Assembly: GCA_964536865.1 (NCBI GenBank)
Contig: CAZHYN010000001.1
Coordinates: 180,001 to 212,000 of the forward strand
DNA length: 32,000 bases
Direction of reading: 5' to 3'
Source of the DNA: an uncultured Planctomycetia bacterium
GTDB lineage: Bacteria; Omnitrophota; Gorgyraeia; Duberdicusellales; 4484-171
The position numbers and the translations under genes are program-made. Below the pieces are notes generated by a model. That model was not told where the DNA came from, did no database searches, and saw nothing but the letters and a program-made list of their open reading frames with translations. Below are positions 5,592 through 6,164 of this stretch, piece by piece (within the stretch, counting starts at the first letter, position 1; each line of letters starts with the position of its first letter).

Positions 5592-6164
5592 TTAGTTAGT
5601 TAAAAGGTTTTTTAATTCCTCTGCAGAGATGCAAATTATCCCTAATTTCTGTGCCCACTTTATTACTCCCTTATCAGAAGTAGCTAGATAGGCAGACAAT
5701 TCTTTAGAAAGAAGGATTAGGTCAAAATCCTCTTTACTGTCAATAATTCCTTCTCTTAAAGCAAATCGATATTCATTTCTCAAATTTTTAATAATTTCTT
5801 CCTCTTTAGCTCCTCTTAGTCCTTTTCGAGAGTGTTTCTCTGCCACTCTCAGACCCTTGTTTATTCGTGTTCTTATTTCCTCAATGAATTCGTAGAGCAG
5901 AATAGCAGGAATAGGAATTTCATACTTAGAGGGAGGCTTTCTATCTATAAGAGAAAGTCTTGGGGATACTTTCTTAATCTCCACAAAATTTAGTAGTTCA
6001 TTAAAAACTGAAGGAGGCATAAAACAAGTAACATTGCTTTTTTTCTCCAAGAGATGCAAAAAATTATTTATCGCTTCTTCAATAGATTTACCGAAGAGAA
6101 ATCGAGTATCAGGGTTTATAAAAATATTAGCATCCAGAACTACCTTTATTTCTTTTCTCTTCAT
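5592..6164 (-). CDS. PIN_5/UPF0278-like metallonuclease, candidate HARP (protein-only, RNA-free RNase P homolog)
   Basis: 190-aa ORF. PIN-type N-terminus KVVLDANIF. Central LYEFIEEIRTRINKGLRVAE block. C-terminal acidic motifs GIIDSKEDFDLILLS and ATSDKG. Length and these blocks match my recollection of the UPF0278 family that contains Aquifex Aq_880. The CDS is solid; the functional call is medium confidence. Confidence 0.55.
   Translation of the reverse strand: MKRKEIKVVLDANIFINPDTRFLFGKSIEEAINNFLHLLEKKSNVTCFMPPSVFNELLNFVEIKKVSPRLSLIDRKPPSKYEIPIPAILLYEFIEEIRTRINKGLRVAEKHSRKGLRGAKEEEIIKNLRNEYRFALREGIIDSKEDFDLILLSKELSAYLATSDKGVIKWAQKLGIICISAEELKNLLTN

Follow-up and report, generated by a model that had tools for sequence, protein, structure and literature searches.

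The window analysed here, a stretch of 32,000 nucleotides, carries on its minus strand an intact open reading frame (ORF) with an ATG start, and the 190-aa protein that it encodes is a homolog of the RNA-free RNase P of Aquifex (HARP). The features around this gene are collected in Table 1. No clear Shine-Dalgarno sequence was found in the sequence upstream of the ATG. The spacer between HARP and queA, which are transcribed divergently as the earlier note had described, contains one weak, inferred sigma-70-like site per direction (6201-6173 on the minus strand and 6239-6267 on the plus strand), and the consensus scan behind them showed no excess of such sites (5 seen vs 3.2 ± 1.9 in shuffled sequences). 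No Rfam family was found within the window.

Table 1 Genes and other features in the vicinity of HARP, numbered from the first nucleotide of the window
Feature	Position	Strand	Remarks
Two CNNM/CorC-type (CBS-domain) transporter genes	3429..5590	+	PF01595, PF03471, PF00571
HARP gene (PIN_5 metallonuclease, homolog of Aquifex RNase P)	5592..6164	-	190 aa; profile, structure and residue matches
Divergent intergenic region HARP/queA	6165..6277	.	113 nt
queA (tRNA ribosyltransferase-isomerase)	6278..7318	+	PF02547, E 5.8e-124
mnmE	12950-14371		
folE	14383-14946		

On the other side of HARP lies the CNNM/CorC pair, which is convergent with it, the stop codons being 1 nt apart. Because they lie on opposite strands, HARP and this pair do not form an operon; a CNNM gene convergent downstream of HARP was nevertheless the commonest neighbour, seen in about 40 of the 57 Omnitrophota-type loci compared. 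Beyond queA, the gene order is an EF-G2 paralog, a truncated YchF, purH, a folC-like ligase, mnmE and folE. Between 7419 and 10084, the stop codon of the EF-G paralog overlaps the start codon of the next gene, whose 222-aa product has a match to YchF in the C-terminal domain only. The proposal that HARP lies among tRNA-modification genes was right as far as the presence of queA, mnmE and folE goes, but the pairing with queA is not conserved: queA is divergent to HARP in only the four closest related loci, and in a fifth locus it lies on the same strand. [quoted passage not shown]

The conserved blocks on which the gene had been recognised are all present in the translated ORF: VVLDANIF is residues 8-15, EEIRTRINKGLRVAE is residues 95-109, ALREGIIDSKEDFDLILL is residues 135-152 and LATSDKG is residues 160-166. 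Assignment to the UPF0278/PIN_5 family was confirmed by strong matches to two profiles. PF08745 (PIN_5) gave an E value of 1.6e-54 and 184.9 bits against a cut-off of 27, with positions 1-201 of the 205 profile positions covered, and TIGR03875 (“RNA ligase partner protein”) gave 184.6 bits, above its cut-off of 95.3. The narrower NF0033xx equivalog models scored under their own cut-offs (for example, 200.1 vs 241). When solved structures were searched, all seven significant matches had been deposited as “RNA-free ribonuclease P”, and the best of them were 7E8K/7E8O (E 1.5e-52). These two entries are the apo form and the complex with pre-tRNA-His of PbHARP, a protein of “Planctomycetes bacterium GWF2_40_8” that depends on Mg2+ to cleave the 5′ leader off pre-tRNA-His in vitro, with D151, D155 and D173 as catalytic residues (Li et al. 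2022, PMC9051087). Its R108 and R146 are also required for cleavage (PMC9051087).

The catalytic and substrate residues of this family are present in the 190-aa protein (D11, R98, R137, D142, D146, D148 and D164). D142, D146, D164, R98 and R137 correspond to D151, D155, D173, R108 and R146 of PbHARP, and D11 is the N-terminal Asp of the PIN domain. These six residues were invariant across 135 sequences of the Omnitrophota clade, and they were retained in 105-117 of the 120 aligned rows of the family. An AlphaFold2 model built from a 71-sequence alignment (mean pLDDT 95.1) predicted two long helices, 87-116 and 121-137, inserted in the PIN core as a two-helix “spike” domain. The best structural match of the model was PbHARP bound to pre-tRNA (7e8o_B), with a TM score of 0.93, an rmsd of 1.5 Å and 47% identity, followed by the pre-tRNA-bound HARPs of H. 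thermophilus (Hydrogenobacter; 8kda, TM 0.91) and A. aeolicus (8kd9, TM 0.87). The profile matches, the solved-structure matches and the structural fit of the AlphaFold2 model make membership in the HARP family secure. The protein is a new member of this known family, and by analogy with PbHARP and the enzymes of Aquificaceae it would be expected to cleave pre-tRNA.

A PIN-domain protein could also be a VapC-like toxin of a toxin-antitoxin pair, and structurally HARPs are indeed placed in the VapC group of PIN domains (Matelska 2017, as cited in PMC9945441). The comparison of structures spoke against it, as the model gave a TM score of only about 0.4 with VapC-type PIN proteins vs 0.93 with HARP, and the model shows the 50-residue spike-helix insertion that is typical of HARPs. 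The gene is also single-copy in most genomes and is present in all three families of the order. As to a partner gene, the earlier note had seen no antitoxin-sized ORF and had argued against a VapBC-type toxin; both points held in the wider comparison. A same-strand ORF of at least 45 aa ending near the HARP start was found in 13 of 44 related loci, with sizes from 46 to 390 aa, and there was no conserved antitoxin-sized ORF upstream in the 44 loci. With the best structures being RNA-free RNase P, a toxin is hardly credible.

The database name raises another alternative, namely that the protein is a nuclease coupled to an Rnl3-type ligase and serves RNA repair or circularisation. “RNA ligase partner protein”, which the earlier note had given as an older label of the family, is indeed the name that NCBI uses for the Omnitrophota proteins. 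In the 2025 census, Rnl3 is usually adjacent to HARP in bacteria, Rnl3 was present in 89% of HARP-positive genomes, and 127 of 164 ligase-positive bacterial genomes had both genes co-localised (PMC12153264). In the order studied here, however, the Rnl3 profile (TIGR01209) was above cut-off in none of the 36 genomes, including our own, and no such ligase adjoins HARP, whose neighbours are the CNNM transporters, plus queA in the closest relatives. A ligase-coupled role is therefore very unlikely, and within Omnitrophota the annotation name is misleading.

The host genome is a Candidatus Omnitrophota metagenome-assembled genome (MAG) of 1.29 Mb in 22 contigs, with 35% G+C and 94.25% completeness. 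Related contigs are named as Candidatus Omnitrophota MAGs, and NCBI lists many sister MAGs as “uncultured Planctomycetia”. The earlier note had pointed to rnpA and rnpB as the genes to look for in the genome, and neither was detected, which fits the reading of a protein-only RNase P. For RNase P RNA, the bacterial type A/B and archaeal families (RF00010, RF00011 and RF00373) had no match in the genome, and the same was true of rnpA (PF00825), while the control genomes were positive in both searches. A profile made from four rnpB genes of Omnitrophota, searched with nhmmer (--max, all filters off), also found nothing in the genome, and the leave-one-out controls of this profile gave E values of 1e-12 to 1e-25. 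Searches for PRORP (PF16953) and type-T P RNA (RF02357) had no match either, but their controls were silent too, so they carry no weight. The MAG is in 22 contigs, and the RNA searches of whole genomes apply a pre-filter to candidates, so that a strongly aberrant P RNA might have been missed.

The place where rnpA would be expected was then found to be intact. In the genome of the window, dnaA is followed by rpmH-yidD-yidC on the other strand, all on one contig, and the stop codon of rpmH overlaps the start of yidD by 4 nt, with rnpA missing between them. In the sister genomes G036 and G039, rnpA lies between rpmH and yidD, and the distance from the rpmH stop to the Cys motif of yidD is 424-448 nt. 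The same distance is 74-170 nt in our genome and in 23 further loci of the HARP-bearing order (those with a locatable yidD motif), which means that there is no room for rnpA. The contiguous dnaA/rpmH-yidD-yidC region and the short rpmH-yidD spacing indicate that rnpA was removed from an intact locus and is not hidden in an assembly gap.

The order to which the genome belongs (families f1-f3) showed the same pattern. Among its 35 other genomes, 33 had a HARP match (E 1e-44 to 1e-59, in all three families), and not one had rnpB or rnpA; two of them, G003 and G006, are single-contig assemblies that have HARP and lack both genes of the RNA-based enzyme. None of the three genes was detected in G005 and G031, likely due to incompleteness of these genomes. 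HARP is single-copy in most genomes of the order. G023 has two copies with identical match scores, 6.7 kb apart (C1:49224-49784 and 55917-56477, locus L010), which points to a local duplication; the same observation covers the contig JBAZGN010000001.1 (L034, L063). A PIN_5-like match of 18.9 bits, below the cut-off, was seen at G000:C4:23898-24038 (L002) in the C-terminal part of a 338-aa ORF, and similar sub-cut-off matches occurred in G016, G023, G104, G182 and G064. The 338-aa ORF was rejected as a HARP and is taken to be another PIN-domain protein.

Outside this order, the RNA was readily found. All five other orders sampled in the class had rnpB and none had HARP, and a class-wide sample of 61 genomes gave the same pattern. 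In a phylum-wide sample of 151 genomes with at least 85% completeness, rnpB was detected in 135, and the 16 genomes without it consisted of all 6 HARP-positive genomes and 10 scattered ones whose family mates have rnpB, which puts the background of missed genes at about 7%. Elsewhere in the phylum, rnpB was thus present in about 93% of genomes, at 85-311 bits. Co-occurrence of HARP and rnpB was not seen in any Omnitrophota genome searched, and the 36 HARP-positive genomes searched, including two single-contig ones, yielded no P RNA. Since our genome and every sampled HARP-carrying relative lack rnpB and rnpA, HARP is most likely the only route for trimming tRNA 5′ ends in these bacteria.

The rival to this reading is that HARP is an accessory enzyme for some specialised RNA processing, with bulk 5′ maturation done by an undetected divergent P RNA or by another enzyme. 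Such a role has been proposed for archaeal HARPs, whose knockouts showed no phenotype, and in vitro activity was lacking in four HARPs from bacteria (PMC12153264, PMC9945441). The published accessory cases all co-occur with rnpB, though, and here HARP and rnpB never do; a P RNA that scores 85-311 bits elsewhere in the phylum would have to be missed in all 36 HARP-positive genomes, and rnpA is absent too, cleanly missing from the rpmH-yidD locus. We consider an accessory role unlikely.

The tRNA genes bear on the same question. The tRNA leaders of A. aeolicus are rich in A(-1) and tend not to extend the acceptor stem, and A(-1) speeds and sharpens cleavage by the three HARPs tested (PMC12439589). 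The 43 tRNA genes of our genome have U at position -1 in 29 cases, A in 7, C in 6 and G in 1, and a -1:73 pair is possible in 29 of the 43, including two C(-1):G73 pairs (tRNA-Asp and tRNA-Glu). The tRNA-His gene encodes G(-1) opposite C73, with U at -2. Four other HARP-only genomes had A(-1) in 11 of 55 genes vs 5 of 46 in rnpB-bearing sisters, and between these four and three rnpB-bearing genomes, we did not find any consistent difference at position -1 or in encoded CCA. An enrichment of A(-1) as a signature of HARP dependence was therefore rejected, as it is absent in our genome and in the other HARP-only genomes. The 3′-CCA is encoded in 8 of 43 tRNA genes of our genome vs every gene (18 of 18 and 12 of 12) in two sisters with rnpB; but the rnpB-bearing G039 encodes it in only 2 of 16 genes and the HARP-only G116 (family f21) in 12 of 13, and these two break the correlation, so loss of encoded CCA was rejected as a signature as well. 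For 17 tRNAs of our genome, the ends called by ARAGORN were off by one base, as U(-1) is able to pair with the discriminator, and the program also made a 96-nt “tRNA-???” call at C1:55661-55756. Leaders that keep the U(-1) typical of substrates of the RNA-containing enzyme, and not the A(-1) of the tested HARPs, are a point in favour of an accessory role. Under the reading of HARP as the sole RNase P, either the HARPs here find their cleavage site in another way, or a bacterium can live with HARP without the leader bias seen in Aquifex.

Weighing these observations together, we think it very probable that HARP is the sole RNase P of this bacterium and its order, and we infer its activity, oligomeric state and essentiality. 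The protein would be a PIN-domain metallonuclease of roughly 22 kDa, presumably assembling into homo-oligomers like the known HARPs, which range from a dimer of dimers up to a dodecamer (PMC9051087, PMC10941002). The spike-helix domain of one dimer would bind the tRNA elbow, and the Mg2+-binding Asp cluster of the partner dimer (D142, D146 and D164, with D11) would cut off the 5′ leader of the pre-tRNA. The RNA-based enzyme (rnpB and rnpA) would have been lost, leaving HARP as the housekeeping RNase P, and probably the only one, of the whole order.

A second HARP-only lineage was found in the same class. Two genomes of family f21, G114 and G116, have HARP and lack both rnpB and rnpA (loci L161 at G116:C16:43500-47100, L162 in G114, L207 and L208). 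In the RpoB tree, f21 belongs to the other half of the class, nested in a group of rnpA- and rnpB-bearing families (support 100), and its RpoB has two insertions. In the HARP tree, the proteins of f1-f3 formed one clade (SH-aLRT 94), with f21 just outside and the PbHARP cluster (P0122) slightly further off, within the 33-row clade that also holds the Omnitrophota proteins, and the landmarks from Heimdallarchaeota and Thermoprotei fell outside the Omnitrophota/PbHARP clade. Both were quick trees, in which deep nodes are weak. The Aquificaceae HARPs could not be placed on the tree, as none of the six clusters compared with the PDB entries was from Aquificaceae (the nearest was P0136, at about 170 bits). 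Because f21 is distant from our order by RpoB, HARP seems to have replaced the RNA-containing enzyme at least twice in the class, and the HARP gene was perhaps passed between lineages. A contig of a “Methanosarcinales archaeon” MAG (JAIWAR010000030.1, L043) has an Omnitrophota-type HARP nested in f1 with the same CNNM/CorC neighbours, and is probably a mis-binned Omnitrophota contig.

Most of the families nearest to the HARP-bearing order by RpoB (f5, f8, f20, f24, f47, f51, f53, f56 and f59) had rnpB in all 13 genomes, at 137-239 bits, and detectable rnpA in none of the 13, and HARP was not found in them either. A bacterial P RNA without its protein subunit would be unusual. In G040 (L093) and in G094, G136, G112 and G192 (L210-L213), rpmH abuts yidD at 83-106 nt, as in the HARP-bearing order. 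The loss of rnpA may have preceded the takeover by HARP. It is also possible that rnpA was lost several times, or that a very divergent RnpA is encoded elsewhere in the rnpB-only families, as the RnpA of family f16 already scores just 30-38 bits. Family f7 groups with these nine families by RpoB but keeps both rnpA and rnpB, and the RpoB tree put it beside the HARP-bearing order with an SH-aLRT of 98, on a long branch; an AU test did not reject a single rnpA-less clan (p 0.13). A stepwise replacement more than once in one class, with rnpA lost first, HARP gained and then rnpB lost, and with f21 going through it independently, is a tentative reading, and we would put it somewhat below an even chance. 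If it were true, at least nine rnpB-only families would be living intermediates of the takeover of an RNA enzyme by a protein enzyme, and this in an uncultured phylum that is not known to be linked to the hot or saline habitats on which current explanations draw.

RNase P is the textbook ribozyme, and the Aquificaceae are a hyperthermophilic family. They are also the only verified HARP-only organisms (reviews and PMC12439589), and explanations of the swap rest on heat, harsh habitats, a ligase partner and co-evolved leaders because this is the sole verified case. A few genera of Nitrospirae and some unclassified bacteria have been listed with HARP and without RnpA, on the basis of protein searches only (Daniels et al. 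2019, PMC6380272). We found no published link of Omnitrophota with RNase P or HARP in the literature covered, to which the 2017 discovery paper (Nickel et al.) did not belong, and the phylum is absent from the text and Table S1 of the 2025 census (PMC12153264). The HARP papers covered also do not name Omnitrophota for the hot or saline habitats that they describe. The order studied here and the second family would thus have made the same swap from ribozyme to protein without the ligase and without the A(-1) bias, so that they offer independent replicates for testing the explanations based on heat, habitat, ligase and leaders, with the neighbouring rnpB-only families as possible intermediates.

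Among the known systems, PbHARP is the closest, being the best match by both sequence and structure (E 1.5e-52, 47% identity) with the same Asp triad and arginines, but it lies outside the clade formed by our order. The Aquificaceae HARPs (Aq880 and others; 7F3E, 8KD9, 8KDA and 8SSF) have the same fold (TM 0.87-0.91) at an identity of only 38-43%. Their hosts resemble ours in having HARP and lacking rnpB and rnpA across a whole lineage, and in their small genomes, whereas the Omnitrophota hosts belong to an uncultured phylum known only as MAGs from many different sampling sites. The Aquificales listed in the 2025 census carry Rnl3 (PMC12153264), unlike the 36 genomes of our order, and the leaders also differ, as our genome has U(-1) and frequent -1:73 pairing vs A(-1) and few stem extensions in A. 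aeolicus (PMC12439589). The HARPs of bacteria that keep the RNA-containing enzyme, such as Thermodesulfatator indicus and Halorhodospira halophila, are of the same family and size, but these hosts have functional rnpB and rnpA, and their HARPs are mostly inactive in vitro (PMC9945441). Most other HARP-bearing bacteria so far described likewise keep rnpA and rnpB (PMC6380272, PMC9945441), whereas in Omnitrophota HARP and rnpB are mutually exclusive.
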